This document shows positions 14,105 to 62,356 of a stretch of DNA of 64,000 nt, in pieces; position 1 is the first letter of the stretch; every line of letters begins with the position of its first letter. The notes below the pieces were generated by a model, which was not told the origin of the DNA, did no database searches, and worked only from the letters and a program-made list of their open reading frames with translations. Made by a program: the position numbers and the translations under genes. Location: the NCBI GenBank assembly GCA_963643345.1, contig CAVIJK010000004.1, positions 310 to 64,309 on the forward strand. Reading direction: 5' to 3'. This DNA comes from a bacterium. Lineage in GTDB: Bacteria; Bacillota_I; Bacilli_A; RFN20; CAG-826.

Positions 14105-14350
14105 TATTGCCAGGCTATGAAGGAAACAGAGTAGCGAGCACATAATCTTCTTTAGAGAGAATCCGGTTGGTGCAAGGATTAGAAGACGTGTTTGTGAATT
14201 ACATTCCGGAGCTGCTTAATGCCGGGGCCGCCCGATACAGCGGACGTCTGACCACCATAGGTTAGATACTAAGGAGTTAGGTGCGAACCTAACTTAAATT
14301 GAGGTGGTAACACGAGAAATTCGTCCTCTACATTAGGGGACGTTTTATTT
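14105..14350 (+). promoter_or_regulatory. T-box leader, Tyr (UAC) specifier, upstream of tyrS
   Basis: AGAGA box (~14153). GTGAA-TAC-A specifier context (TAC at 14200-14202). T-box sequence AATTGAGGTGGTAACACGAG (~14297-14316). Terminator CGTCCTC...GGGGACG (14322-14342) plus a T-run. Confidence 0.85.
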
Positions 14351-14373
14351 TGTCCCAAAGAAGGAGAACACAT

Positions 14374-15591
14374 ATGGGTGTTTATGAAGAGTTACAAGAA
14401 CGTGGCTTAATCGCGCAGGTCACAGATGAGAAGGAAATAAGAGATCTCATCAACAGGGGTGGGGCAAAATTCTACATCGGATTCGATCCAACAGCAGACT
14501 CATTGCATGTCGGCCACTTTATGGCACTTTGCCTAATGAGAAGATTGCAGTTAGCAGGCAACAAGCCGGTAGTCTTAATCGGCGGCGGTACAGGATATAT
14601 CGGGGATCCTTCCGGTAGAACCGACATGAGAGCAATGCTGACTCCAGAGACAATTCAACATAATTGCGACTGCTTCTATAAGCAAATGCAGAGATTCATC
14701 AAATTCGGACCGGATGACGCAATAATGGTTAACAATGCCGATTGGTTATTAGGCCTCAAATACGTCGATGTCTTAAGAGAAGTCGGCGCATGTTTCAGCG
14801 TCAATAACATGCTTAGAGCAGAGTGCTATAAGCAAAGAATGGAAAGAGGACTGTCTTTCTTAGAATTCAATTACATGATCATGCAGTCATATGATTTCTA
14901 CTACCTTCATGAACATTACGGATGCAACATGGAGTTCGGTGGTGACGATCAATGGTCAAACATGCTCGGCGGAACCGAATTAATTAGAAAGAAAACTGGT
15001 CACGATGCATATGCGATGACAATCACTCTTCTCCTCAATTCAGAGGGCAAGAAAATGGGCAAAACAGCATCTGGCGCTGTTTGGCTTGATCCAAACAAGA
15101 CATCTCCATTTGAATTCTTCCAATATTGGAGAAACATCGATGACGCCGATGTCACTAAATGCTTAAAGATGTTAACCTTCATCCCGCTTGATAAAATCAA
15201 AGAGATGGAAAGCTGGGATGCATCCAGAATCAATGAGAAGAAAGAGATTCTTGCATATGAATTAACCGCATTAGTCCACGGCGAGGACGAAGCGACCAAA
15301 TCTAGAGACATGGCGAGATCCCTCTTTGCTGGCGGCGGTGACAATATGCCAACATTCGAATTAACCGAAGCGAATCTTGTTGATGGAAAGATTACATTGA
15401 TTGATTGTTTGGTTCTCTCTGGACTCTCGACATCAAAAACAGAGGCTAGAAAACTCATTCAGGGAAACGGTGTTGCAGTTAATGACGTGAAAGTCGCAGA
15501 TATCGCTCTAAGCTTCACTGCTGAAGAACTTAAGCAAGGTGTCAAGATTAAGAAAGGCAAAAAAGTCTTCGAAAAAATCATCCTTAAATAG
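14374..15591 (+). CDS. tyrS: Tyrosine--tRNA ligase
   Basis: HIGH motif (LHVGH), KMSKS motif (KMGKT) and a C-terminal S4-like domain. The ORF-track start 14350 is TTG within the T-run. ATG 14374 follows AAGGAG. Confidence 0.95.
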   Translation: MGVYEELQERGLIAQVTDEKEIRDLINRGGAKFYIGFDPTADSLHVGHFMALCLMRRLQLAGNKPVVLIGGGTGYIGDPSGRTDMRAMLTPETIQHNCDCFYKQMQRFIKFGPDDAIMVNNADWLLGLKYVDVLREVGACFSVNNMLRAECYKQRMERGLSFLEFNYMIMQSYDFYYLHEHYGCNMEFGGDDQWSNMLGGTELIRKKTGHDAYAMTITLLLNSEGKKMGKTASGAVWLDPNKTSPFEFFQYWRNIDDADVTKCLKMLTFIPLDKIKEMESWDASRINEKKEILAYELTALVHGEDEATKSRDMARSLFAGGGDNMPTFELTEANLVDGKITLIDCLVLSGLSTSKTEARKLIQGNGVAVNDVKVADIALSFTAEELKQGVKIKKGKKVFEKIILK

Positions 15592-26541: not shown

Positions 26542-26699
26542 ATAATTAAGCCTCTTTTTAACGTCGAGATTATATCATCCGGACAAATACAGTCACTAAA
26601 AATAGGTGAAAACATTTTCATCTCAACTTTTTTAAAAATCATTACAAATTTTGCTTGCCTTTATTCGATATGGTGTTTAAATATGCCCAACGACATCGA

Positions 26700-26953
26700 A
26701 GAGGAAGAGTAGTCTCCACTTGCGTCTAAAGAGAGTCCCAGCAGCTGTGAAGGGATGACGAAACAGAGATGAACATGGCCTCGGAGTTGGCAGGGTGATA
26801 TGTAATCCTGTCCGGGGGAGCCCGTTAAAGCGAAAGAGTATGTTAGTACTCGATGAGGTCTAATCTAGTGATAGGTTGGATGAACTAAGGTGGTAACACG
26901 GGAATTTCTGTCTCGTCCTTAACAAGATTATTTTGTTAGGACGAGACTTTTTA
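26700..26953 (+). promoter_or_regulatory. T-box leader, Met (AUG) specifier, upstream of metNIQ
   Basis: AGAGAG box (~26731). GAAC-ATG-G specifier context (ATG 26775-26777). T-box sequence ACTAAGGTGGTAACACGGG (~26885-26903). Strong terminator GTCTCGTCCTTAACA...TGTTAGGACGAGAC (26910-26947) plus T5. Confidence 0.85.
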
Positions 26954-26985: not shown

Positions 26986-27987
26986 ACGGCAGAAATCGAA
27001 ATTTGTAATCTCTCAAAGTCATTCGGAGACCGTAAGGTCTTAGATAATGTCTCCCTCGATGTTGAGAAAGGCGATATCTATGGAGTCTTAGGCTTATCCG
27101 GTGCTGGCAAAAGCACACTGGTAAGATGCATTAATGGTCTCGAGACATTCGACAAAGGTGAGATTTATTATCGGGGAAAGTTGCTTTGTTCCCCAAAAAA
27201 GAAGGTGGAAAGACTAGAGAAAAGAAAAATAGGAATGATCTTTCAATCTTTCAATCTTCTCCAGCAGAGAACGGTCCTTGGCAACGTAGAGCTTGCATTG
27301 GAAATTGCCGGAGTCAAAAACAAAAAAGAAAAAGCCTTGGAATGTATCGAAAAAGTCGGATTGACCGAGCATATCAACAAATATCCTTCTCAACTCTCTG
27401 GCGGCCAATGCCAAAGAGTCGCAATTGCAAGAGCCCTTGCCCTTGAGCCGGAAGTGCTACTATCGGATGAGGCCACCTCAGCTCTCGACCCAGAAACGAC
27501 GAATTCAATTCTTGATTTATTCAAAAAATTAAACAAGGAATTGGGATTAACCATCATCATGATCAGCCACCAAATGAATGCGATTGAGAGAATTTGTAAT
27601 AAAGTCGCCATCATAGATAAGGCTGTCATCGTGGAAAAAGGCGATCTCAGCGATGTGTTCTTGAATCCAAAAGCCGATATATCCAAACAGCTTATTTATT
27701 CAGGACACTTAAATACCAAACTTGATGATCAAAGGCTTATCCGAATCATATTTGAAGGCAACTCGGATGAACCGATACTCGCAAACATTATCCAGGAATG
27801 TGGAATCATAGTCTCAGTCGTCTTCGCTGATACGAAATTAATTGAAGGCAAGATATATGGGCAGATGCTGATAAAATGCCCTGCACGAGACAAAGATTTA
27901 ACAAAGCTCCGCAAATACTTGGCACTCCATAACATCACTTATAGAGAAGAGGACGCCAACGGAACTGAGTTGGAAGAGGGGGACTAA
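26986..27987 (+). CDS. metN: Methionine ABC transporter ATP-binding protein; non-canonical start
   Basis: The frame is open from 26959. AAAGGAGGA lies at 26971-26979. Walker A GLSGAGKST is at 27091-27117, which is upstream of the ORF-track start (TTG 27181). Signature LSGGQCQRV, Walker B LLSDEATSALD, and a C-terminal NIL/MetN regulatory domain. No ATG, GTG or TTG lies between the in-frame stop and Walker A, so the start is ACG 26986, ATC 26995 or ATT 27001. Confidence 0.85.
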   Translation, partial: TAEIEICNLSKSFGDRKVLDNVSLDVEKGDIYGVLGLSGAGKSTLVRCINGLETFDKGEIYYRGKLLCSPKKKVERLEKRKIGMIFQSFNLLQQRTVLGNVELALEIAGVKNKKEKALECIEKVGLTEHINKYPSQLSGGQCQRVAIARALALEPEVLLSDEATSALDPETTNSILDLFKKLNKELGLTIIMISHQMNAIERICNKVAIIDKAVIVEKGDLSDVFLNPKADISKQLIYSGHLNTKLDDQRLIRIIFEGNSDEPILANIIQECGIIVSVVFADTKLIEGKIYGQMLIKCPARDKDLTKLRKYLALHNITYREEDANGTELEEGD

Positions 27988-37072: not shown

Positions 37073-37474
37073 GGGGCCGTTCCGGTTTTGACGGGGGGTC
37101 TGTCCGGCCTTGGTTGCAGCGGCGTGATGAGCCATAACATCAAAAAAACAATAACTGACAACAATTCAGTAAAACCTTGGATGCTTGGTGCAAACCACGC
37201 AGCCTTCGCTCGCGCTTAATCTAGCCTCGATATAGAGCCCGCCTTTTGCGGGGGAGCAAGTCATACCACCATTTCTCGTCTATTGGCGGATATGGCTTAA
37301 TATCAAGACGATAAGCCTTGGCCATTGTTCGGTGACCTAGGACGAAAACCTTACGAACGCCGTCAGAGGAAGACCGATCTTGCCGAGCCTCTGATGTACA
37401 GGGCAAGACCTAAGCTGTAGACGCCACCGTTGGGGGTCCTTCGGACAGGGGTTCGATTCCCCTCGACTCCACCA
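37073..37474 (+). ncRNA. ssrA: tmRNA (SsrA), ~402 nt
   Basis: 5' GGGGCCGTTCCGGTTTTGACGGGG pairs with the 3' tRNA-like end GGACAGGGGTTCGATTCCCCTCGACTCCACCA. The internal tag frame 37157-37219 reads GAC AAC AAT ... GCT CGC GCT TAA, giving (A)DNNSVKPWMLGANHAAFARA. The resume codon was placed by analogy to the B. subtilis AAUAACU context. Confidence 0.93.
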
Positions 37475-49349: not shown

Positions 49350-49668
49350 CATGGATATTTTATGGGCAGTCTTATTAATGTTAGGCTTAGCGGTTGGTTT
49401 ATCGTGCTTAATCGTTTTATTCTCCATCATATTCCACGTCGAGGAAGATCCGAGAATCGATAAAGTCGCAAGCATGCTCCCAGGAGCAAACTGCGGCGCC
49501 TGTGGCAAGGCGGGATGCCGCGATTTAGCCGAGTCGCTTGTCACTGGCGAAATCAAGAAAGTCACTACCTGCAAAGCCGGAAGAAAAGATAAGAACTTCG
49601 ATCCGATAATCACTTATCTAAAGGAAACTCCAGGACCGGACGGAAAGACAGTGGACGTCACAATGTAA
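49342..49668 (+). CDS. rnfB: Short RnfB: membrane anchor plus N-terminal Fe-S domain only, no 2x[4Fe-4S] ferredoxin domains
   Basis: 108 aa. One TM helix, then the LPGANCGACGKAGCRDLAESL...C RnfB-type cluster motif. The ORF stops (49666-49668) and a terminator follows directly. Confidence 0.8.
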   Translation: MNNMDILWAVLLMLGLAVGLSCLIVLFSIIFHVEEDPRIDKVASMLPGANCGACGKAGCRDLAESLVTGEIKKVTTCKAGRKDKNFDPIITYLKETPGPDGKTVDVTM

Positions 49669-49676
49669 TATTGATT

Positions 49677-49700
49677 AGGACACTTTGTGTCCTTTTCTTT
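49677..49700 (+). terminator. Terminator after rnfB
   Basis: AGGACAC-TTT-GTGTCCT (49677-49693) followed by a TTTTCTTT tract. Confidence 0.8.
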
Positions 49701-49739
49701 CGCTTGTAGTAAGTTTTACACCCTATTATCATAATAATC

Positions 49740-50762
49740 ATGAAAAGAAGAATCGGCCTTATTTTATTAGCCCCTTTAATCCTTGCCGGTTGCAGTAACA
49801 AAATTGGAGAAACCTATAGCTCCACCGCTATCGTTTTCAATAGTTTTTTCACCTGCAAATACTTTTCAAACGCCGGTTCACTAAATGATGAGATAAACGC
49901 AACCGTCAACAAAATCAATCAATTGGCAGACCCATACACGGATTATAACGGGCTGAATAACTTATATAAAATCAATGAAACCAATGAGGCAATTACAGTT
50001 GACCCAATTCTTTTTGATTTGGTTAAAACCGCTATGGATTTGTATCAAAAAACCGAACACAACTTCAATCCGTTCATCGGCAAGATAACTAGCGTTTGGA
50101 AAACGGTCTTATTTGGAGAGAGCGGTGACTCATCATTCAGCGGGCCCACCGTTTCATCAATCGAGGAGACGAAAGCTCTGATACCATCTCTTTTGAATGA
50201 GGCAAATTCCACAAGTGTGCTTCTCAATGAAGACAACTGTACCATAACCAGAGTCGGCCAAGGCCATATTGATTTAGGAGGCTTAACCAAAGGCTATGCC
50301 GTTGAGCAAGTGAAAAAGATGCTTAAGGCAAAAGATATCGGGGTTTATTTAGTCAATGGCGGCCAGAGCTCTTTGGGACTAGGCAAAACCCAAGATGGCG
50401 GGGAATTCAAAGTGGATCTCAAATATTCAAAAGAACAATATGAGAATAGATACTCTCTAGGAGAAATTGATACATCCACCTCCGCAATATATGAGCAATC
50501 AATCATCGTGGATGGCACAACCTATTCGCATATCATCAACCCAACAACAGGCATGCCATTGACGGCTTATTCGATGGCTTTTTTGGTGGGCGAGGATAGC
50601 ACGCTTCTAGACGCTTTCTCTACATCATGCATAATCGCAGGACCGGAAAAGGCAGAAGAATGGGGCAACAAATACGGATTCTCCTATTCTCTATTCAAAG
50701 ATGATGGAGGTTATACAAAACTAGTTAAAGAATCTGATTCATTGAGCAAGGCTAGAATTTAA
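49740..50762 (+). CDS. apbE: FAD:protein FMN transferase (ApbE family) lipoprotein
   Basis: Signal peptide with lipobox ILAGC-SN and ApbE-like motifs (DLGGLTKGYA, YSHIINPTTG). Confidence 0.9.
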   Translation: MKRRIGLILLAPLILAGCSNKIGETYSSTAIVFNSFFTCKYFSNAGSLNDEINATVNKINQLADPYTDYNGLNNLYKINETNEAITVDPILFDLVKTAMDLYQKTEHNFNPFIGKITSVWKTVLFGESGDSSFSGPTVSSIEETKALIPSLLNEANSTSVLLNEDNCTITRVGQGHIDLGGLTKGYAVEQVKKMLKAKDIGVYLVNGGQSSLGLGKTQDGGEFKVDLKYSKEQYENRYSLGEIDTSTSAIYEQSIIVDGTTYSHIINPTTGMPLTAYSMAFLVGEDSTLLDAFSTSCIIAGPEKAEEWGNKYGFSYSLFKDDGGYTKLVKESDSLSKARI

Positions 50763-51235
50763 TGGTCATAGAAGAAACGCAAACGCAATCTAACAAAACA
50801 CCAAGGAAAAAGAAGAATTTCTTCTTAAAACACCTTTGGGATTTTATTCTCTTGGGCGTTCTTTTAATTGGTACATCTGCGTTTTATATCGCTAGAGCCA
50901 TATCCAAGGGAAGCGCCACTAATGAAGACATCTCCGCGACGATCCTCTATGAAGGGAAAGCAATTGAAATACTGGACTCCAGGGGAAAGAATAGAAACCC
51001 TCTCAACTTGGAAGAGATTGAAAACTACGAGGAAATCGAAATCAATGGAAAACACACAACTTTAATTATAGGCGTCAAACACAACGCCATATGCGTAGTT
51101 AAATCTGGATGTCCGGGACAGGAATGCGTGCATGAAGGGTGGATAAGCGAGGCAAACCATCCGATAATCTGTGCGCATAACGAAATTTATATAGAGGTAT
51201 CCACTAGCGATTGGGGAGATATATCCCAAGGATAG
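50762..51235 (+). CDS. NusG domain II-containing membrane-anchored protein (DUF1312-like)
   Basis: 157 aa. N-terminal TM anchor. C-terminal SGCPGQECVHEGWISEANHPIICAHNEIYIEV matches the CPxxxC...W...C.HN pattern of NusG_II proteins. Its start overlaps the apbE stop. Confidence 0.75.
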   Translation: MVIEETQTQSNKTPRKKKNFFLKHLWDFILLGVLLIGTSAFYIARAISKGSATNEDISATILYEGKAIEILDSRGKNRNPLNLEEIENYEEIEINGKHTTLIIGVKHNAICVVKSGCPGQECVHEGWISEANHPIICAHNEIYIEVSTSDWGDISQG

Positions 51236-51237
51236 TT

Positions 51238-51780
51238 ATGAAAGGTAAGTTTGGTATTAAACAAATCGCACTCATTGCAATGCTATTATCCCTCGCTTTA
51301 GTGTTAAGCATTGCTGAGAGTTTCATTCCTTTTGGCATACCGGGATTAAAACTCGGATTGGCGAATATGGTTATATTGCTAGCCATATATTACTTCGGAT
51401 TCTGGGTTGCATTGGCAATTGATGTTTTGAGAGTATTTATATCTTCGATTGCTTTGGGCACTTTCCTCGCAATGGGCTTTGCAATGTCCATGGCAGGCGC
51501 TTTATTAAGCTTCTTTATCATGTACGTATTCTATCGTTGGTTAAAGATGTTTACTCCGGTTGGAATTTCAATTGCAGGGGCATACTCCCATGCCTTAGCC
51601 CAAATTTTCGTAGGTGTAATTTATTTAGGTACCTGGGGCGTTTTCTATTATTTCCCCGTTATGGCTCTAGCCTCCTTAATTAGCGGTACATTCAATGGCA
51701 TTGTCGTTGAACTAATCTTAAATAACAAATATTTGTCCACCGTTGTCGGATATGTAAATAGAGAAGAAAACAACAATTGA
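51238..51780 (+). CDS. Gx transporter family protein (Hpre_diP_synt_I-like membrane protein)
   Basis: ~180 aa with 5 TM helices. LALVLSIAESFIPFGIPGLKLGLANMVILLAIY is typical of this family. ATG 51238 is 3 nt after the upstream stop. Confidence 0.8.
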   Translation: MKGKFGIKQIALIAMLLSLALVLSIAESFIPFGIPGLKLGLANMVILLAIYYFGFWVALAIDVLRVFISSIALGTFLAMGFAMSMAGALLSFFIMYVFYRWLKMFTPVGISIAGAYSHALAQIFVGVIYLGTWGVFYYFPVMALASLISGTFNGIVVELILNNKYLSTVVGYVNREENNN

Positions 51781-51843
51781 GCATGCACGATTATAAACAT
51801 GAAAGTTTATAAAATTTTTTCATAGTGGTTAAATATAGTAGTT

Positions 51844-53688
51844 ATGTTGAAAATCAAAGAATATTGGCAATCAATTGGCGGCAATCCGGAAACGACAGAC
51901 CCGTTTGAAAGAAACGAGGAAAAGGCAAATTGCAGCATCAGTTTGTACATGTGCCTTCATGGCGTCGTAAGCGTCATTGCAATCATTTTAGCGGCAGTCG
52001 GTTTTTTTAACGTAAAGACATCTGGCATCTATTTGATCGGATTGGAAACTTTCTTAATCATCGCTCCATCCATCGCATGCTTGAGCGTAAAAGGCAAAGG
52101 CAAAGCATTCAAATACACGCTGATTGTACAATTTTTGGTATATTCCGCTGTCACTAGAGCATACATCGGAGAGTTCGGATTGCTCCTCATTTGTGTTGGA
52201 GTCTTAATGTCATCCCGTTATTTCAATAAAGGGTTCACAAATGCAATCATAGGCATAGCGTGCGTGGCTTTCCTGAGTTCAGAATTCGGTTATTGTTTCG
52301 GGTACACCCCGGATGCAACAATCGGAGGAACAACGGTAAAAGTCCTCCTAAATTCTAATGGAACAGGCTATACCTTTGAGGTGGCCGATGGAAAAATGTG
52401 GCAATATGTAGGGCTTGTGTGGAGATATAACGGTCTCCCTTGCGGTTTATTGCTCATCCTCATCTTCATCATCACCTACTCATTAACCTTAGCGGGTAGA
52501 CGCCTGGTGGATGATAAATCAAAACAATTGGCAAAACAGGCAGTTATGTCCGGAGAGCTAGATATGGCACGAGAAATTCAGAAGAACATGCTCCCGAAAA
52601 CATTCCCTTTGTTCCCAGAATACGAAGACATCAATGTTTATGCAATCATGAATCCCGCAAAAGAGGTAGGCGGTGATTTCTACGACGCTTTTACGGTTGA
52701 TGAAGATCATGTTGCGTTCCTTATCGCCGATGTGTCAGGAAAAGGCATTCCTGCAGCGATGTTCATGGCCTTATCTAAAGTCATCATCAAAACCCAAGAA
52801 ATTGCCAGTGTTGATCCGGGTAAAGCTTTCACGGCAGTCAATGACACATTGAGAGAAGGGAATGACATCAATTTCTTTGTTAGCGCATGGATTGGCGTCA
52901 TGAACACAAAGACCGGCGAACTTAAATATGTAAATGCCGGCCACAATCCACCGCTATTCGCCAGAAAAAGCGGGCATTACGAGTTCTTAAAAGACATCTC
53001 AGGCCCAGTACTAACCGCACTTGGAGGTTTTCCTTATAAAGTCCACACCATCCAACTTCAAAAAGGTGACCGCCTATTCCTTTATACCGACGGCGTGACT
53101 GAGGCGGAGAATGCATCCCAAGAGAAATACGGAGCCAAAAGACTAAAGAATTTCCTGAACACAGCTTCGAAAATATCAATTCGATCAATCGTCAAGGAAG
53201 TTAGATGCGACGTTAACAAATTCGTAGATGGAAACCCTCCTAGCGATGATATAACCATCTTGATGTTTGAATACGGGACATTCTCCAAATCTTTCTATAT
53301 CAATAAGACAAGCATCTCCACAATCATCGAGATATGTAATCGCTATATGGCAAAATACGGTGCAGATAATAGAAGCGTAAATCAGATCGATGTCGTCTTA
53401 GACGAGGCTTTAGCAAACATCTACCAATACGCCTACAATCCAAACGTTGAGGGAACCGTTACCGTTTCCTTGAACTTCGAGCAGGAAACTAGCGAGGTCA
53501 CTCTCGCCTTGAGCGATAAGGGAAAACCATTCAACCCATTAGAAAAAGAAGCACCAGACACCACTTTATCCAGCAAGGACAGGGAAATCGGTGGTCTAGG
53601 AATCCATATGGTCAAGCAACTGGCGGACAACATTGAATACCGTAGATTCGATGACGAAAACATCTTGATCATAACTAAGAAAATATAA
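51844..53688 (+). CDS. Membrane sensor fused to a SpoIIE/PP2C phosphatase and an RsbW/SpoIIAB-type HATPase kinase
   Basis: 614 aa. ~6-7 TM helices in residues ~40-230. PP2C motifs GGDFYD, ADVSGKGIPAA, YTDGVTEA, SDDITIL. C-terminal HATPase_c-like N box (DEALANIYQYAY), G1 (SDKGKPFNP) and G2 (GGLGIHMV). Confidence 0.85.
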   Translation: MLKIKEYWQSIGGNPETTDPFERNEEKANCSISLYMCLHGVVSVIAIILAAVGFFNVKTSGIYLIGLETFLIIAPSIACLSVKGKGKAFKYTLIVQFLVYSAVTRAYIGEFGLLLICVGVLMSSRYFNKGFTNAIIGIACVAFLSSEFGYCFGYTPDATIGGTTVKVLLNSNGTGYTFEVADGKMWQYVGLVWRYNGLPCGLLLILIFIITYSLTLAGRRLVDDKSKQLAKQAVMSGELDMAREIQKNMLPKTFPLFPEYEDINVYAIMNPAKEVGGDFYDAFTVDEDHVAFLIADVSGKGIPAAMFMALSKVIIKTQEIASVDPGKAFTAVNDTLREGNDINFFVSAWIGVMNTKTGELKYVNAGHNPPLFARKSGHYEFLKDISGPVLTALGGFPYKVHTIQLQKGDRLFLYTDGVTEAENASQEKYGAKRLKNFLNTASKISIRSIVKEVRCDVNKFVDGNPPSDDITILMFEYGTFSKSFYINKTSISTIIEICNRYMAKYGADNRSVNQIDVVLDEALANIYQYAYNPNVEGTVTVSLNFEQETSEVTLALSDKGKPFNPLEKEAPDTTLSSKDREIGGLGIHMVKQLADNIEYRRFDDENILIITKKI

Positions 53689-53702
53689 GGAGCGCAATAT
53701 TT

Positions 53703-54875
53703 ATGGAACACGCATTAAAAGATAACGCATTAACCGTTACACTACACGGCCGAATCGATACAGTCACCTCTCCCGATGTTGAAAAGGAACTATCCTCAAT
53801 TCTATCTAAAAGCAAATTCACAGCTCTTATATTGGATTTAGCGGATGTTGATTTCGTCTCATCAGCGGGATTGCGTATTTTTCTGCGCACTAAACAAACC
53901 CATGACAACCTCTCCATAATTAATGTCAAACAAGAGGTATATGAAGTGTTTGAGATGACCGGTTTTACCGAGATTATGGACGTTGAGAAAGCCTATCGGC
54001 AATTCTCCATTGAAGGGTGCGAGGTGATTGGCAAAGGGGCTGTTGGAACCGTTTATAGATATTCTGACGACACGATTGTTAAAGTCTTTAGTGAAGACAC
54101 TAGCCTCGAAGAGATTAAACGTGAGATAGACATCTCTCATAAGGCTTTCATTTTGGGCATTCCTACCGCTATTTCTTATGATGTTGTTAAGGTTGGAGGC
54201 TCATTTGGAACAGTGTATGAGCTGCTTAATTGCGAGACGATGAAAGGCTTAATCCTTAAAGACCAACAACATCTTGGCAAATACGCGAAGATGTATTCAG
54301 ACGTTCTTCACGCATTGCACAAGAGCAAAGTGGAACCGGGAGAGTTGCCAAGCGTCAGAGAACACGACTTGAAAGTCGCTAAGATCGTGGCTCCGCTATT
54401 ACCAGAAAAAGAATCCCATAAATATTTGAAAATGGTTAATGAAATACCTGATGATTACAATGTTTGTCATGGTGATTGCCATATCAAAAACATCATGGTT
54501 CAAAACGGCGAGCCATTGTTCATCGATATGGAAACCTTAAGTTATGGCAATCCTGTATTCGACTTTTCTAGAGCGTATAACACATATTTCGGATATACCG
54601 AACTCTTAAATCAACAAGACGACATGTTTATCGGGCTTCCATATGACACGGTAAAAGAATTTTGGAAACTTACCCTGATGGAATACTTCAAAACTAAAGA
54701 CCCCGTAAGAATAGAACAGCTTGAGAATAAGTTCGCCTTGCTTGGAAATGCATATTTGCTCTACAAAGTCACAACACTTCCTGATTTCGCCAATAAGGCC
54801 GGAGAAGAAAAAATCGAGTGGTTGAAGAAAACAATCTGCGAAGAGATAGATAAAGCGGACAATCTCTTACTTTAA
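53703..54875 (+). CDS. STAS (anti-sigma antagonist-like) domain fused to an APH/choline-kinase-like protein kinase-fold domain
   Basis: 390 aa. The N-terminal ~95 aa are RsbV/SpoIIAA-like, with a conserved phospho-acceptor context DFVSSAGLRIF (Ser53, nt 53859-53861). The C-terminal domain has a Gly-rich loop IGKGAVGTVY, VKVF Lys, Brenner motif HGDCHIKNIMV and FIDMETLSYGNPVFDF. Confidence 0.85.
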   Translation: MEHALKDNALTVTLHGRIDTVTSPDVEKELSSILSKSKFTALILDLADVDFVSSAGLRIFLRTKQTHDNLSIINVKQEVYEVFEMTGFTEIMDVEKAYRQFSIEGCEVIGKGAVGTVYRYSDDTIVKVFSEDTSLEEIKREIDISHKAFILGIPTAISYDVVKVGGSFGTVYELLNCETMKGLILKDQQHLGKYAKMYSDVLHALHKSKVEPGELPSVREHDLKVAKIVAPLLPEKESHKYLKMVNEIPDDYNVCHGDCHIKNIMVQNGEPLFIDMETLSYGNPVFDFSRAYNTYFGYTELLNQQDDMFIGLPYDTVKEFWKLTLMEYFKTKDPVRIEQLENKFALLGNAYLLYKVTTLPDFANKAGEEKIEWLKKTICEEIDKADNLLL

Positions 54876-55062
54876 TTTGAAATAGTCAGTAACAAGGATG
54901 GCAGGAGTATGTCCAATCACGAAAACAGGCGATTAATTGTAGTTTTTTAAATGTTTTTGCTTAAGACAAAAAAATCCGGAGGCATCCGCCGAAGGAAGGA
55001 TGTCTACCACACTTGAGGCTTGCGCCCTTATGTGGCTAGGTTATAATTAAATTGTTCTTTTT

Positions 55063-55097
55063 GGTCCTCCCAGTTTGCGCTGAGAGGAACCTTTTTA
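55063..55097 (+). terminator. Plus-strand terminator abutting the stop codon of the convergent small ORF
   Basis: GGTCCTC (55063-55069) pairs with GAGGAACC (55084-91, one bulge), then T5 (55092-55096). It is the first terminator downstream of the STAS-kinase gene, which has a 220-nt tail. Confidence 0.7.
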
Positions 55098-55157
55098 TTT
55101 CAACAATCTAACTACTATCGTGATAAGCAACACGGCCGCAATCGCGACTAGCAGCAT
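55095..55157 (-). CDS. Candidate 20-aa hydrophobic peptide MLLVAIAAVLLITIVVRLLK (type I toxin-like)
   Basis: ATG 55157 is preceded by the purine-rich GGAAAGGGGAAAGGG. A single TM-length hydrophobic helix ends in RLLK. It stands alone in a 690-bp non-coding gap. It forms the last 20 codons of the implausible 117-aa ORF in the track. Confidence 0.4.
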   Translation of the reverse strand: MLLVAIAAVLLITIVVRLLK

Positions 55158-55561
55158 ATCCGACCCTTTCCCCTTTCCGGCGGATGGCGATTGTAGAGCG
55201 CATAGATGATGCCCTCCACTAATATATAGATGAGTTTTTCTGGATTTTTCCCAAAATCGTATTCTTTTGCTAAAAATCGTTATTTTTCGGTACAACGACC
55301 ATTCTAAAAATAATTGAACAAAGAAATCTAAAAACAATGTCTTAAATGAAAAAGCAATTCTAAATTGAATTTGAGTATTAAAAAATAGATGTTTATTTAT
55401 GCATGATATTGCCTTTGATTGCTTTTGTTTATCACTAACAAAGACCATTAATCACGGAACGTTGAAAAGTAAGAAATACTTTTAGTGCTTCCATTTTTCT
55501 TTGTATAACTCGCTCGTTTAGTGTATTGTTTGTTTGCTAAAAAGCAAAAGAGAATATCGAT

Positions 55562-56692
55562 ATGTCAAACACAAGAAAAATTAAAGCAAAGAAAGTGAGC
55601 CAGCCAAAGAAGACAAGTGCCTGGTCAAAAATTTGGTCTGGAACGAAATATTTCCTCAAATCATTATTCAGCAATGACGTATGCGTCGATGCTAGAACAA
55701 AAAAATGGTACTGGGCGATTCTCATCGCCGTGGTATCTCTAGTTGTCGCAACTATCCCGACCATGGTCAACTATTTCAAGGTTAAAGGCGGAAGCTTCCT
55801 CGACAGCACAACCTACAACTATGATTCGCAAATCTACGCATTCACTCAGGATATGGAAGCCAACGGAATAAAACTCAAAGTTGAAAACGGAACATTGGTT
55901 GACGAAGGCAACACATGCAAAGTTGACGATTCCAACATCATCTACAAACACATTGTCTCAATGGATGTAGTCTATAAGGACAGCACATCGGGCGAGATTG
56001 TTTCAACAACAGACAAATACGTTGATTTCGCAGTCTACTTCTACCCGGATGCTGTCTACTCAAAGAAAAAGAGCGACACAACCCACACAAGACTCTCTGA
56101 TTTAGTAACCAATGTTATAGGTGGCAAAAACCCTAAGGCAGATAACGAGGAAATCGGCGAGAAATACACAATCAACGCCCTTTTCTTGGGAAAAGAGTCA
56201 TTCACCGCCGTCAAGTACACCGGAATAAGCTCTTCAGGTTCTGTCTCTAGATCTTCTATCACCTATAAGTATCAAGGCGCAAACCAGAATGGCGATACAA
56301 CCTTCTACCTTAAAGATTTATTGGGTACTGATAAGGCCGCAACCGTCAGCAATTGGAAGGTTTATCTCAATAACGCTTACATGCCAATCAAATTAGCAAC
56401 TGGTTGGGCATCAACCGGAATCACATTCGGTATCTACACAGCATTAACAATCCTTTTGGGATTCGTCGTCTGGATCATGACAAGAGGCAAGAACAATCCA
56501 TTCCGCATCTACACTTTCTGGGAATGTCAAAAGATTGCCTATTGGGCGGCACTAACTCCTGCCATCATCGGAATGTTAATCGGATTCTTCATGTCCAGCA
56601 TGGTCATGTTGGGATTCATCCTCTGCTATGGCGTGAGAATCATGTGGATGTCCATGAGGTCCTTAAGACCATATCAGGACGAACAGAAATAA
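55562..56692 (+). CDS. Membrane protein of unknown function (basic N-terminus, TM, ~220-aa extracytoplasmic domain, 3 C-terminal TM helices)
   Basis: 376-aa uninterrupted ORF with a clear TM pattern and a terminator immediately downstream. No motif recognised. Confidence 0.75.
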   Translation: MSNTRKIKAKKVSQPKKTSAWSKIWSGTKYFLKSLFSNDVCVDARTKKWYWAILIAVVSLVVATIPTMVNYFKVKGGSFLDSTTYNYDSQIYAFTQDMEANGIKLKVENGTLVDEGNTCKVDDSNIIYKHIVSMDVVYKDSTSGEIVSTTDKYVDFAVYFYPDAVYSKKKSDTTHTRLSDLVTNVIGGKNPKADNEEIGEKYTINALFLGKESFTAVKYTGISSSGSVSRSSITYKYQGANQNGDTTFYLKDLLGTDKAATVSNWKVYLNNAYMPIKLATGWASTGITFGIYTALTILLGFVVWIMTRGKNNPFRIYTFWECQKIAYWAALTPAIIGMLIGFFMSSMVMLGFILCYGVRIMWMSMRSLRPYQDEQK

Positions 56693-60227: not shown

Positions 60228-62270
60228 TTATTCTCCTTCTCCGTGATATTTGTCGCCTCTAGCCTGATCTAGGTAGCTATTGAGCACACTGACGACCTGA
60301 GCGTGGGCTTTTGTAACGTCTGATAAGTCTCTAAATGTGATTGCGGCTGCACCGAAGTGTCCACCACCGTTCAATTTTTCGCAGATTAATTGAACGTTGA
60401 CGGTTCCGTCTGATCTAGCGGAGCAGTTGCAGGTATTAGATGCCGTCTTGCCTAAGACAAAACACGCATTGATTCCTTTAAGATCCATGATTCTATTAGC
60501 CACTTTTGCTAATGTTTCTTTCTCAACAAGATCGGTCGTGTTCATTGTGGTTGCGATGCCAGGGAACGGGAATCTAACCTGCGAGACCATCTCGTTGATG
60601 AGTTGATATTCTTGGAGTTCATCCTTTAAGAATTCAGAAGCAAGAGAGTTATCTGCGCCATAACCCTTAAGGATTTCACACGCTTCGAATGTCTTCATTC
60701 CGGTAGTTTTGGCCTTGAAGTACATAGAATCGAGGAAGATACCCGATAACATGATTGTCGCAAACGATGAAGGTATTTCGATCTTAGGGTTCGCCGTTGC
60801 GAATCTAATCATTTCAGCGACAAGTTCTGAAGCAGATGATGCACCTGGATCTGAAACATCGAGGACAACGTTGTTCTCAATGACATAATTGCCTTTTCTA
60901 TGGTGATCGATGAGAACTATCTTAGAGGCTTTGTCTAAGAGTTTTGGCGCCATAGTGGCTAAAGGCACTCTAACATCACACACAATCAATAACGTAGATT
61001 CTTTAATTAAGCCTAAAGCCTCATCTGGTGTGCACGATATTTCAGCGACTTGCTCTTTGGAGAATGATGAGTTGAAGGCATCTCTAGTCTTCATCTCAAC
61101 CTGCTTAGGGAGATAGACCACTTTAGCCGGTTTCTCACACCAATCACAGATGGCTTTAACACCTAAACATGAACCTAAAGCATCCATGTCCATCTTATCA
61201 TGACCCATGATGATGATGTTAGATGAGGTCTTAATATCATTAATAAGGGAATCGGCGCGTGAACGCATCTTGACTTTGGAGGTTGATTCAACGCCGGTTG
61301 TTTTTCCGCCGAAGTACTGAGGATCCTTGCCATATTCGGAGACAACGCACTGATCGCCTCCACGTGCAAGAGCGCTTTGTAAAGCGATACCTGCGGCTTC
61401 ATTAAGTTTTGCGTAATCTGCAAATTTATACGAGAAACCAATTGATAAGGTTAATGGGGTGTCTTCTTCCTTACCCGCCTCTCTAGCCTTCTGAAGAAGA
61501 GAGAACCCGTTCTTGATCATGTTGCATAATGCTTCATAGTTGCAGACGGTGAAGTAAGTGTCTGACTTAACACGTCTTAGAACCACCTTAAATTCTTTAG
61601 CGTAATCAAAGATGATGTTTCTGATGACGTTGATTGCTGCAGCAGCATCATCCGTATCCGTTGCGAATTCATCAAAGTTGTCGATGTTGATAATGCCAAG
61701 TACTACCCCTTCTTTTGTGGAATAGTTGAGCAAATCCTGATATTCAGTTACATCTTTAAGAATAAATAATCGTGGTTCTGATAAATACTTAACGTCGAAC
61801 TCTCTATTTGAGAATGAGATTCTAATAACTTTATTGACAGGTGCGTTTACTAAATCTCCAAGTGATGGCTGCCATTCAAAGACATTGGAATCAACGATAT
61901 CCAATCTCAATTCTTTGAACAATCCATTTGTCCAGATGATGAGGTTGTTCTCATCGATGACAACCATTCCGACTTTACCGAAGTCATAAGCGTCTTCGAT
62001 ATCTCCGCCAATCAATTGAGCGGCATCGAGATCATTCTTTTGTCTAGCCTTTTTCAATGTGGCAATCGAGAAATAGAAGAACAGCACATCGAATACGAGG
62101 AATATTGTGATGAGCAATATGAAGGCGTATAGAACCTTTAATTCATCTAATCCGGAATTGGCGATGACACCGGTGAAGAAATAAAGAACCGAAGCGGTGA
62201 TTATTAAGACTGCTTCAATGAGGAATATTACAAATGTTGCTGTGCGTAATTTAGATAAGGTTTTATTCAT
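60228..62270 (-). CDS. gdpP: Membrane-anchored DHH/DHHA1 phosphodiesterase, GdpP (c-di-AMP phosphodiesterase) type
   Basis: Two N-terminal TM helices, a PAS-like and degenerate GGDEF region, DHH motifs (GHDKMDMDALGS, IDHHRKG) and DHHA1 GGGH. ATG 62270 was chosen because the ORF-track TTG 62351 lies inside the upstream terminator. No SD is visible. Confidence 0.88.
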   Translation of the reverse strand: MNKTLSKLRTATFVIFLIEAVLIITASVLYFFTGVIANSGLDELKVLYAFILLITIFLVFDVLFFYFSIATLKKARQKNDLDAAQLIGGDIEDAYDFGKVGMVVIDENNLIIWTNGLFKELRLDIVDSNVFEWQPSLGDLVNAPVNKVIRISFSNREFDVKYLSEPRLFILKDVTEYQDLLNYSTKEGVVLGIINIDNFDEFATDTDDAAAAINVIRNIIFDYAKEFKVVLRRVKSDTYFTVCNYEALCNMIKNGFSLLQKAREAGKEEDTPLTLSIGFSYKFADYAKLNEAAGIALQSALARGGDQCVVSEYGKDPQYFGGKTTGVESTSKVKMRSRADSLINDIKTSSNIIIMGHDKMDMDALGSCLGVKAICDWCEKPAKVVYLPKQVEMKTRDAFNSSFSKEQVAEISCTPDEALGLIKESTLLIVCDVRVPLATMAPKLLDKASKIVLIDHHRKGNYVIENNVVLDVSDPGASSASELVAEMIRFATANPKIEIPSSFATIMLSGIFLDSMYFKAKTTGMKTFEACEILKGYGADNSLASEFLKDELQEYQLINEMVSQVRFPFPGIATTMNTTDLVEKETLAKVANRIMDLKGINACFVLGKTASNTCNCSARSDGTVNVQLICEKLNGGGHFGAAAITFRDLSDVTKAHAQVVSVLNSYLDQARGDKYHGEGE

Positions 62271-62325
62271 AGTAATGTTAATTATAGACTTGAGAACAAA
62301 GACTAATAAAGAAGTCTTTGAAAAA

Positions 62326-62356
62326 TAATAAAAAAGAAACCCTGTTGCCAAGGCTT
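62326..62356 (-). terminator. Terminator after the surface-protein gene
   Basis: On the minus strand, AAGCCUUG-GCAA-CAGGGUUU followed by CTTTTTTATT. Confidence 0.7.

Follow-up and report, generated by a model that had tools for sequence, protein, structure and literature searches.

Two adjacent genes from a Faecalibacillus-like gut bacterium of the Bacillota may encode a regulatory switch that is built from the parts of partner switching and that acts on an enzyme in place of a sigma factor. In the window, by which we mean the whole 64-kb stretch of DNA that was analysed, gene 1 encodes a membrane protein that combines a PP2C phosphatase with an RsbW-type serine kinase, and gene 2 encodes a STAS domain that continues into an APH/ChoK-like kinase domain on the same polypeptide. 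On balance, we lean towards reading the pair as a sigma-less, partner-switching-like phospho-switch that gates the STAS-fused kinase. The features on which the discussion draws are as follows.

51844..53688, + strand: gene 1, membrane sensor, PP2C phosphatase and RsbW-type serine kinase, 614 aa (ORF, Pfam)
51844..52530, + strand: N-terminal membrane sensor domain, aa 1 to ~229 (hydropathy, AF2)
52699..53271, + strand: SpoIIE/PP2C phosphatase domain, aa 286-476 (PF07228, E 1.4e-45)
53308..53679, + strand: HATPase_c_2 domain, RsbW/SpoIIAB-type serine kinase, aa 489-612 (PF13581, E 6.4e-22)
53689..53702, + strand: intergenic spacer, 14 nt, with a GGAG ribosome-binding site (sequence TAA ggagcgcaatattt ATG)
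53703..54875, + strand: gene 2, STAS and APH/ChoK-like kinase domain, 390 aa (ORF, Pfam, NCBIfam)
53718..53990, + strand: STAS domain, aa 6-96 (PF01740, E 6.6e-15)
53859..53864, + strand: codons of S53 and S54 (HMMER alignment to SpoIIAA)
54021..54872, + strand: APH/ChoK-like kinase domain of protein-kinase-like fold, aa 107-390 (PF01636)
55063..55100, + strand: terminator-like hairpin and U-run, candidate 3' end of the operon (folding -14 kcal/mol, z -2.65, then UUUUUAUUU)

Both ORFs lie where the initial annotation had placed them, and Pfam agrees with its description of a single 614-aa protein that unites SpoIIE/PP2C with HATPase_c_2 and of a downstream product in which STAS is joined to a kinase-fold (APH) domain. 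All four domains score above their Pfam cut-offs in the HMM searches that it had proposed, and the gap between the genes is corrected from 15 nt to 14 nt. The pair makes up one operon, and the same tight order recurs in relatives (loci L002, L003, L088 and L098); L002 keeps the gene pair while its flanking genes differ from those of the window. The hairpin downstream of gene 2, which is missing from the list of a consensus terminator scan, probably belongs to this operon. The 64-kb window holds no further STAS, HATPase_c_2, PP2C or HD_4 ORF.

No Pfam family was matched by the N-terminal domain of gene 1 (aa 1 to ~229), and Pfam finds no PAS, Response_reg or STAS domain anywhere in the product. 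Hydropathy analysis gives five hydrophobic segments (aa 37-55, 64-82, 103-124, 134-152 and 198-216), and the AF2 model has helices at 20-51, 59-81, 89-108, 110-126, 129-152 and 182-248, the loop at 154-181 being modeled with low confidence. These data support the ~230-aa multi-TM sensor first proposed and suggest a membrane domain of roughly five to six helices, in which N24, E25, A28, K90, R125 and G218 are invariant among 32 homologues of 32-92% identity. The phosphatase and kinase domains had been described as complete, a description that conservation in 34 fused homologues bears out: the PP2C metal-binding Asp residues, which lie in the motifs GGDFYD (D278/D281), DVSGKG (D296), TDG (D416) and DDIT (D468/D469), are at least 90% conserved, as are the N-box (E521/N525), G1 (D558/G560) and G2 (G583-G586) residues of the HATPase domain. 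The NCBIfam equivalog models for RsbW and SpoIIAB are not reached (29-34 bits versus cut-offs of 135-155). Gene 1 has more than 8000 homologues, the best 120 of which are almost all ~620 aa long with the same architecture.

The STAS domain of gene 2 has profile matches to the SpoIIAA, RsbV and TM1442 structures, and it passes the TIGR00377 anti-sigma antagonist model of NCBIfam (63.3 bits versus a cut-off of 53.45). The initial annotation had named S53 as the phospho-acceptor. Its serine motif is indeed nearly invariant, since neither S53 nor S54 varies among 25 members and both reach at least 90% conservation in a set of 150 STAS-APH representatives (at most 50% identity), as do G56 and L57 in that set. 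The choice of serine did not hold. HMMER aligns FVSSAGL with FMDSSGL of 1th8 and FMDASGL of 1tid, the latter chain having Ala in place of the first Ser of DSSGL, and S54 falls opposite the residue that we take to be the SpoIIAA phospho-serine. The alignment thus identifies S54, not S53, as the predicted homologue of that serine.

The Pfam APH match in gene 2 covers aa 107-297 (E 1.1e-14, 55.2 bits versus a cut-off of 23.2), and the catalytic set is whole, as initially claimed: Gly-loop G110/G112, beta3 K127, alphaC E141, H256-G-D258-x-H-x-x-N263 and the metal-binding D275. Across the same 150 representatives, no variation is seen at G112, K127, D258 and D275, conservation at E141, H256 and N263 reaches at least 90%, and G110 belongs to one or the other of these two classes. 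The AF2 model of gene 2 (pLDDT 91, pTM 0.80) has an all-helical C-terminal lobe (helices 285-384), a trait of the APH/ChoK type. Foldseek matches the kinase part best to APH(3'), MTR kinase, APH(2'') and N-acetylhexosamine kinase (E from 5e-10), with small-molecule kinases throughout the best 50 structural matches and TM-scores to APH enzymes of 0.5-0.57. The sole significant sequence-profile match in the PDB is hygromycin-B 4-O-kinase (E 3e-5). TIGR02172 is the best-scoring NCBIfam model (109.2 bits, E 2.7e-31, cut-off 228.2), to which the domain is related without being a member, and the resistance models APH_3p (15.5 bits versus 205) and APH_6 (13.7 versus 325) are not reached. The domain most resembles small-molecule kinases and is predicted to be catalytically competent.

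In canonical partner switching, the kinase/anti-sigma factor captures a sigma factor and lets it go again, and this sigma factor is usually encoded in the same operon. With E. coli RpoD, FliA and RpoE as jackhmmer seeds, no sigma-70-family ORF was detected anywhere in the 64 kb of the window, in accord with the original claim. A consistently adjacent sigma partner was also sought in relatives of the locus, and a sigma factor occurs within 6 kb in only 4 of 84 STAS-APH loci and at no fixed position; by this test, the module does not look like an ordinary Rsb system, although a sigma factor could still be encoded elsewhere in the genome.

The STAS-APH fusion forms ~610 clusters at 50% identity. 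It is present in the genomes of at least 561 species, most of which are gut Clostridia and Erysipelotrichales, and as a variant of partner switching it is widespread but unstudied. STAS is found in 114 and APH in 113 of 115 family representatives, and databases label the proteins "anti-sigma factor antagonist". We took a census of 84 loci, with flanks of up to 6 kb. HATPase_c_2 adjoins STAS-APH in 54 of them and PP2C in 40, and in 34 of these 40 the neighbor is a fused PP2C-HATPase. Co-conservation of the pair is evident from the STAS-APH side and from the sensor side, where six sampled gene 1 homologues (35-37% identity) all have an adjacent STAS-domain gene. This gene is STAS-APH in three of the six, and the pairing of the other half with different STAS proteins indicates that the sensor is not specific to a STAS-APH output; one homologous sensor lies beside a Metallophos-5'-nucleotidase-STAS fusion. 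The genes lie side by side, are conserved together and are in some cases fused, and the phosphatase and kinase may be dedicated to the fused STAS. HATPase_c_2 is found fused at either end (STAS-APH-HATPase_c_2 and HATPase_c_2-STAS-APH), and these Rosetta-stone fusions strongly tie the RsbW-like kinase to the STAS protein. Other rare fusions are STAS-APH-PHP, HD-CE-STAS-APH and STAS-APH-PolyA_pol. In at least 10 loci whose 6-kb flanks are complete, STAS-APH has no PP2C, HATPase or STAS neighbor, and the kinase can thus occur with no controller beside it. As a chromosomal module flanked by housekeeping genes, the family is conserved among anaerobic gut Firmicutes, and no mobile-element context was seen around its loci.

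The typical family locus has two parts more than the window, namely a second stand-alone STAS (46 of 84 loci) that carries the same SSAGLR motif intact and a gene for a RelA/SpoT-type HD_4 hydrolase (51 of 84), and the window carries the minimal two-gene form that lacks both. The second STAS hints that two STAS partners truly compete, something that the two-gene version does not allow. HD_4 was an unexpected neighbor for STAS-APH. It retains the RelA/SpoT hydrolase motifs HP..VA, LHD..ED and DKLsNmR, and the kinase gene overlaps or abuts the HD_4 gene in most relatives.

A mechanism can be proposed in which the membrane protein would sense a signal through its conserved domain of five to six helices, and its RsbW-type serine kinase (HATPase_c_2) and PP2C phosphatase, working in opposition, would set the phosphorylation of Ser54 on the STAS domain. 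Unphosphorylated STAS would probably dock on the HATPase domain at the membrane, and the STAS state would control the fused APH/ChoK-like kinase domain. The gene 1 kinase is presumed to phosphorylate Ser54; phosphorylation would then regulate the APH domain in one direction or the other, with the kinase presumably being the output of the switch rather than its input. The substrate of the APH domain may be nucleotide-like, an idea whose basis is gene neighborhood and four single fusion examples, with the window itself having no HD_4 gene. Given the close linkage of kinase and HD_4 genes in most relatives, the most likely kind of output is a phosphorylated nucleotide-like metabolite that the kinase would make and the hydrolase remove. 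A more specific and rather improbable version holds that the STAS-gated kinase and HD_4 are synthase and hydrolase of an undescribed phosphorylated nucleotide- or nucleoside-type signal, or that they carry out reversible RNA/nucleotide-end phosphorylation, with a membrane partner-switch sensor in control. If true, a kinase-made "alarmone" or second messenger would be widespread in gut Clostridia and Erysipelotrichales, and the window would be a hydrolase-less minimal version of such a signaling system.

The same parts could also make up a classical partner switch whose output lies elsewhere, with the HATPase_c_2 domain sequestering a sigma factor or other regulator and STAS-APH acting as the antagonist, its kinase-like domain serving as an ATP or metabolite input as in the non-STAS domain of RsbR. 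The second stand-alone STAS would give the HATPase domain at least two competing STAS partners, which is a hallmark of true partner switching, the database name of the family agrees with an antagonist role, and the ten full-length loci without nearby partners indicate that components can act in trans. We nevertheless consider this explanation unlikely. The window has no sigma-70-family gene and such genes are rare and variably placed in the census, the HATPase domain is part of the same chain as a membrane phosphatase, and the invariance or near-invariance of K127, E141, D258, N263 and D275 in 150 representatives argues for catalysis and not mere ligand sensing. The tight coupling of the kinase gene to a hydrolase gene is likewise sensible for an enzyme output.

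If the APH domain is an enzyme, its substrate could be a protein, as for the bacterial PKL-fold kinases YihE/SrkA, CotS/CotI or Bud32, in a two-tier cascade from sensor to phospho-STAS to protein phosphorylation. Weak NCBIfam matches to CotS (E 4e-5), MAD6 kinase (E 2e-4), PRK11768 Ser/Thr kinase (E 1e-3), NleH and Bud32, together with weak TCAD9 matches in some members, point in this direction. These NCBIfam matches are far below cut-offs and mainly cover the shared Brenner motif, however, and the all-helical lobe at 285-384, the hygromycin-B kinase match and the best 50 structural matches, which are all to small-molecule enzymes (APH(3'), APH(2''), MTR kinase and N-acetylhexosamine kinase), make a protein kinase improbable. 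The lead of aminoglycoside phosphotransferases among the fold matches, the profile match to hygromycin-B 4-O-kinase (E 3e-5) and the Pfam family name, APH, would fit an inducible antibiotic-modifying enzyme of the aminoglycoside/hygromycin type, whose activity would be turned on when a membrane sensor registers envelope or antibiotic stress. We regard this as very unlikely, given that NCBIfam resistance models score ~14-16 bits against cut-offs of 205-325, that the TM-scores to APH enzymes stay at 0.5-0.57 and that the family is conserved on the chromosomes of anaerobic gut Firmicutes, among housekeeping genes and with no mobile-element context seen. Its coupling to a RelA/SpoT-like hydrolase and to STAS partners would also make no sense for drug modification.

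A phospho-switch gating a STAS-fused kinase can be set beside several known systems. The RsbU/RsbW/RsbV and SpoIIE/SpoIIAB/SpoIIAA systems share the same three folds and the same serine-containing STAS motif with our gene pair, which differs in having phosphatase and kinase fused, STAS fused to an enzyme and no sigma factor. On the enzyme side, gene 2 has the fold and all of the catalytic motifs of APH(3'), APH(2''), MTR kinase, NahK and hygromycin-B kinase, but its identity to any solved kinase is at most 19% and gene 2 adds an N-terminal STAS. The best PDB match of gene 1 in both sequence (E 3.9e-14) and fold (Foldseek E 2e-19) is RsbU and RsbW of Rv1364c from Mycobacterium tuberculosis (3ke6), a PAS-RsbU-RsbW-RsbV protein that likewise has PP2C followed by HATPase_c_2 in a single chain. 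Rv1364c is a cytoplasmic protein with a link to sigma F regulation; its sensor is a PAS domain, and it ends in a STAS domain of its own. Gene 1 instead has a membrane sensor, and the STAS that goes with it is encoded by another gene as part of a kinase fusion. HsbR of Pseudomonas also fuses kinase and PP2C domains and has as its partner the STAS protein HsbA, which itself carries the output; in both HsbR and SypE, a phosphorelay feeds the receiver domain that serves as input. Both resemble gene 1 in placing an RsbW-like kinase and PP2C on one polypeptide, and they differ from it in that the gene 1 input is a membrane domain. In Vibrio fischeri, SypE acts through these two activities on the STAS protein SypA, which is itself the output and controls biofilm formation via a non-sigma target (PMC8256260). 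SypA and HsbA are STAS-only, whereas the STAS of gene 2 carries a fused enzyme.

Two further precedents lack a sigma factor and place an output on the STAS protein itself. The published abstract on CapK/CapS describes a sigma-less pair of an anti-sigma-type kinase and a STAS-like transcriptional repressor, encoded upstream of immune operons, in which phosphorylation of CapS directly alters the activity of the fused or embedded output. There the kinase senses ssDNA as its input, and the output consists in DNA binding; the abstract mentions no PP2C partner, in contrast to gene 1, and PADLOC, which might have reported an immune context, gave no match here. In the All4160/HenR/Alr3423 module of Anabaena sp. 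PCC 7120, a STAS-glycosyltransferase is reported to be under a PP2C phosphatase and RsbW-like kinases, with no sigma factor and with the STAS phospho-state regulating the enzyme. Our gene pair is alike in fusing STAS to an enzyme and in encoding PP2C and anti-sigma-type serine kinase functions. It differs in its host phylum, in the fusion of phosphatase and kinase in one membrane protein encoded in the same operon as the target, and in its output, a predicted APH/ChoK-like kinase where the Anabaena system has a glycosyltransferase. Since fused PP2C-HATPase regulators (Rv1364c, SypE, HsbR) and STAS-fused outputs (All4160/HenR, CapK/CapS) are already known, the arrangement is less unprecedented than the initial annotation implied.

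Two open reading frames (ORFs) on the same strand of the window make up the candidate partner-switching pair, and their called boundaries match those in the initial annotation exactly:

51844-53688, forward strand: gene 1, ORF of 614 aa (protein 1, the membrane sensor)
53703-54875, forward strand: gene 2, ORF of 390 aa (protein 2, STAS-APH)

The genes are coupled as an operon through a spacer, previously given as 15 nt, that is actually 14 nt long (TAA-ggagcgcaatattt-ATG) and carries a GGAG ribosome-binding site. The four domains that had been read from the sequence are all supported by Pfam, far over the gathering scores:

Protein 1, aa 286-476: SpoIIE/PP2C, E 1.4e-45
Protein 1, aa 489-612: HATPase_c_2, E 6.4e-22
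Protein 2, aa 6-96: STAS, E 6.6e-15
Protein 2, aa 107-297: APH, E 1.1e-14

Among NCBIfam models, the anti-sigma antagonist superfamily model recognizes protein 2 at 63 bits (cut-off 53), the RsbW/SpoIIAB-like matches in protein 1 fall under their equivalog cut-offs, and TIGR02172, the best-fitting model over the protein 2 kinase region, reaches 109 bits, under its cut-off of 228.

Protein 1 has >8000 homologues, and the best 120 are nearly all SpoIIE+HATPase_c_2 proteins of ~620 aa in which the membrane domain is also covered. No family model covers the first ~230 residues, where five hydrophobic segments occur and an AF2 model places helices at residues 20-152 and 182-248 with a low-confidence loop (154-181) between them. 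N24, E25, A28, K90, R125, and G218 are invariant among 32 homologues at 32-92% identity, so this region is a conserved sensor-like module and more than an anchor. The description of the phosphatase and kinase domains as complete was borne out by 34 fused PP2C-HATPase homologues drawn from related loci, in which the PP2C aspartates D278, D281, D296, D416, D468, and D469 and the GHKL boxes (N-box E521/N525, G1 D558/G560, G2 G583-G586) are ≥90% conserved; all of these residues are present in the window protein. The best match of protein 1 is the RsbU+RsbW portion of Rv1364c (3ke6), by sequence (E 3.9e-14) and by fold (E 2e-19), and Rv1364c is likewise a fused kinase-phosphatase regulator.

Conservation in STAS-APH was assessed over 150 representatives of ≤50% mutual identity, plus a 25-sequence alignment. 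G112, K127, E173, D258, and D275 are invariant among the representatives, and S53, S54, G56, L57, R58, E141, H256, and N263 are each ≥90% conserved, which agrees with the kinase motifs having been called intact and with conservation of the acceptor serine motif in orthologues. Together these residues make up the complete catalytic complement of a protein-kinase-like enzyme and the STAS serine motif. The choice of S53 as phospho-acceptor needs correction. The SpoIIAA acceptor is S58, the first Ser of DSSGL, and HMMER aligns FVS53S54AGL to FMDS58SGL of SpoIIAA (1th8) and to FMDASGL of 1tid, whose chain has Ala in place of the first Ser in the DSSGL of 1th8. S54, not S53, is the homologous acceptor because S58 lies opposite it in this alignment.

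STAS-APH forms a large signalling family of gut anaerobes that is mis-annotated and has gone unstudied; the window carries an ordinary member of it in reduced form. A protein search gave >5598 matches to STAS-APH, and the best 120 of these are all ~390 aa, contain STAS plus APH, and carry the names "anti-sigma factor antagonist" or "phosphotransferase". Among 1.84 billion 50%-identity representatives, 610 matched at E ≤1e-30, and a Pfam domain census of representatives found STAS in 114/115 and APH in 113/115. At least 561 loci were confirmed in a species-genome collection; their hosts are Clostridia (Oscillospiraceae, Lachnospiraceae, Acutalibacteraceae, Christensenella, Mogibacterium), Erysipelotrichales, some Spirochaetia, and one Coriobacteriales MAG.

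To define the neighbourhood of the family, ORFs were called in 84 non-duplicate loci within 6 kb on either side of STAS-APH and searched with HMMs built from the same loci.

Genes near STAS-APH in 84 non-duplicate loci
HATPase_c_2: 54/84 loci
Fused PP2C-HATPase, among the HATPase_c_2 loci: 34
Stand-alone HATPase_c_2 of about 135 aa, among the HATPase_c_2 loci: 19
Triple fusion STAS-APH-HATPase, among the HATPase_c_2 loci: 6
PP2C: 40/84 loci
Stand-alone STAS of about 98 aa: 46/84 loci
HD_4 protein (RelA/SpoT-type hydrolase) of about 190 aa: 51/84 loci
No PP2C, HATPase, or STAS: 19/84 loci, ~10 of the 19 with full flanks

The modal locus reads [STAS] [membrane PP2C-HATPase] [HD_4] [STAS-APH] [STAS], as in L004, L007, L097, and L099. 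The HD_4 gene lies directly upstream in all 51 of its loci, often overlapping the STAS-APH start, and in the 38 loci where it was clustered it is always on the same strand at a median of 5 nt from that start (for example L007:5429-6004, L028:4662-5240, and L097:5881-6468). Its product matches PF13328 (E 1e-17) and a RelA/SpoT model over the hydrolase region (E 5.6e-23), and the consensus retains HP..VA, LHD..ED, and DKLsNmR, the RelA/SpoT hydrolase motifs, with the HD and ED motifs intact. This arrangement suggests that HD_4 and STAS-APH may form a kinase/hydrolase pair on one phosphorylated substrate. The stand-alone STAS proteins of related loci (for example L004:3503-3799, L001:7193-7489, and L099:7083-7376) all keep the SSAG/ALR motif, and where such a second STAS is present the HATPase domain would have two competing STAS partners. 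Neither HD_4 nor a second STAS was found in the 64 kb of the window; L002/L003, L088, and L098 (the last from Clostridia) share this minimal two-gene pair.

Rare longer variants (P0124, P0127, P0161, P0171, P0174, and P0202; loci L043, L053, L079, L080, and L083) have the architectures HATPase_c_2-STAS-APH, STAS-APH-HATPase_c_2, STAS-APH-PHP, HD-CE-STAS-APH, and STAS-APH-PolyA_pol head. The HATPase_c_2 fusions provide direct Rosetta-stone evidence that an RsbW-like kinase acts on STAS-APH. Co-conservation of the pair was also seen from the sensor side, where the neighbours of six protein 1 homologues at 35-37% identity were examined.

STAS partners of six sensor homologues
L094: STAS only
L095: STAS, with a second STAS and an HD-CE gene close by
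L096: Metallophos + 5'-nucleotidase-C + STAS fusion
L097: STAS-APH, via HD_4
L098: STAS-APH
L099: STAS-APH

A STAS-domain gene is adjacent in all six, so the sensor phosphatase/kinase is a general controller of STAS proteins, with STAS-APH its commonest yet not its sole output in this set. The 681-aa fusion at L096:1928-3973, which adjoins the sensor homologue P0322, is another STAS-fused nucleotide-related enzyme output of the same kind of sensor; beside it, at L096:1-1899, lie genes for a PAS-guanylate/adenylate cyclase and a cNMP-binding protein. Together with the HD_4 neighbour and this nucleotidase-STAS protein, the PHP, HD-CE, and PolyA_pol fusions, each known from one example, point to phosphoester or nucleotide chemistry.

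Sigma factors were sought by jackhmmer, with RpoD, FliA, and RpoE of E. coli as seeds. No sigma-70-family ORF was found among all ORFs of the window, as had been claimed, and one was found in only 4 of the 84 loci (L009, L019, L044, and L070), at differing positions; orthologues thus have no consistent sigma neighbour, although a gene in another part of the genome could still encode a sigma factor.

The window is collinear with a contig of Faecalibacillus sp. (Erysipelotrichales, Coprobacillaceae) at 84-88% DNA identity, and neighbouring genes were named from the Pfam gene-call annotation of relative L088:

44740-51780, forward strand: rnfCDGEA(B)-like operon, then ApbE, a NusG_II protein, and a membrane Hpre_diP_synt_I-like protein
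60228-62351, reverse strand: GdpP-type protein (GGDEF_GdpP + DHH + DHHA1 in the L088 orthologue)

The rnf-ApbE context directly upstream of the pair is not kept in more distant relatives. Downstream lies a membrane protein of unknown function and beyond it, on the other strand, rlmH, an MBL-fold gene, dnaB, rplI, and gdpP. The GdpP-type protein belongs to a c-di-AMP phosphodiesterase family; its gene sits in the dnaB-rplI cluster, with no evident link to the pair. A 67%-identical relative retains the pair between wholly different flanks (ABC transporter, Na/H exchanger), so the pair is an autonomous module. In the 63-nt gap 5' of gene 1, an 8-bp inverted repeat (TTATAAAC-N6-GTTTATAA, 51791-51812) could be an operator or a chance occurrence in AT-rich DNA. 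A ~690-nt spacer without a called gene (54876-55561) follows the STAS-APH stop codon, exactly where the Faecalibacillus relative ceases to align at the DNA level, the alignment restarting at 55428. This spacer holds a terminator-like hairpin (55063-55091) plus a U-run, and the end of minus-strand ORF 55095-55448 may encode a small hydrophobic peptide (MLLVAIAAVLLITIVVRLLK). Rfam gave no match in or beside the pair at the gathering threshold; the only Rfam match there, a sub-threshold L10 leader in the downstream spacer (E 0.2), was taken as chance. A consensus promoter/terminator scan of 49500-55700 found no more sites than in shuffled sequence. Elsewhere the window carries a tmRNA gene (37073-37474, forward strand; RF00023, 117 bits) and two T-box leaders (RF00230) at 14108-14331 and 26687-26923 (both forward strand; 98.5 and 111.7 bits), which precede ORFs 14350-15591 and 27181-27987, respectively.

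The evidence best supports reading the pair as a sigma-less phospho-switch that resembles partner switching. In this reading the membrane sensor would balance its own RsbW-type kinase against its own PP2C phosphatase, and the two would together set phospho-S54 of the STAS domain. The fused kinase would be controlled by the STAS state and probably also by the unphosphorylated form docking onto the HATPase domain. If SypA and All4160 are a guide, unphosphorylated STAS-APH would be the active form. The proposal that STAS phosphorylation gates a kinase is partly supported: it withstood all of the computational attempts at refutation, and the domain identities, conserved motifs, operon coupling, co-conservation in both directions, fusions, and lack of sigma factors are established, whereas the phosphotransfer itself, the gating of the APH domain and its sign, the kinase as output, and its substrate are what we infer. 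The APH domain could instead be an input, with the true output elsewhere, which we consider unlikely.

No record of the exact sequence of the window's STAS-APH protein was found, and the 91%-identical homologue P0002 stood in for it. The AF2 model of STAS-APH is confident (pLDDT 91, pTM 0.80), and its best PDB folds, APH(3'), 5-methylthioribose kinase, APH(2''), and N-acetylhexosamine kinase, are all small-molecule kinases (E from 5e-10, with target-normalised TM-scores of only 0.4-0.57 and identity ≤19%). The kinase domain is thus a distinct subfamily without a characterised close relative. That the domain is a protein kinase was weighed and ranked low, as rather improbable. The sole significant sequence-profile match of the kinase part is to hygromycin-B kinase (E 3e-5), and an inducible drug-modifying enzyme, the antibiotic-resistance reading, was also weighed and ranked lower still, as very improbable. 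A defence-island reading was dropped because PADLOC gave no defence-system match for either protein, the HD_4 neighbour, or the downstream membrane protein.

Partner-switching modules are usually read as regulators of sigma factors, and for this reason databases name STAS-APH an "anti-sigma factor antagonist". In STAS-APH the same switch would be wired straight to an uncharacterised kinase that is catalytically intact by sequence, in a family that covers hundreds of gut-anaerobe species, mostly without genetic study. The conserved tie to a RelA/SpoT-like hydrolase raises the question of which phosphorylated metabolite is made and broken by the kinase/hydrolase pair. In literature searches on STAS-APH or STAS-phosphotransferase fusions, no description of a STAS-APH protein came up, and those on TIGR02172, HD-CE/TCAD9, or small alarmone hydrolases with STAS returned nothing on STAS-APH, no paper on TIGR02172, and none tying STAS to small alarmone hydrolases.

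The novelty of the arrangement had been overstated. HsbR is a fused kinase-phosphatase regulator by domain composition and, together with Rv1364c and SypE, is a precedent for kinase and phosphatase on one protein, as in protein 1. SypE is a dual serine kinase/phosphatase, and SypA is a sigma-less output of a STAS switch (PMC8256260). Further sigma-less outputs are All4160, a STAS-glycosyltransferase under the control of HenR and RsbW-like kinases (PMC13555669), and CapK/CapS. Because fused regulators and sigma-less STAS outputs are already known, the principle of the pair is not new; the novelty lies in the output enzyme, in the fusion to a membrane sensor, and in the conserved partnership with a hydrolase. 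If the mechanism is true, a systematic mis-annotation would be corrected, and post-translational, enzyme-level control by phospho-STAS would reach beyond a single cyanobacterial glycosyltransferase and take in a large family of kinases.
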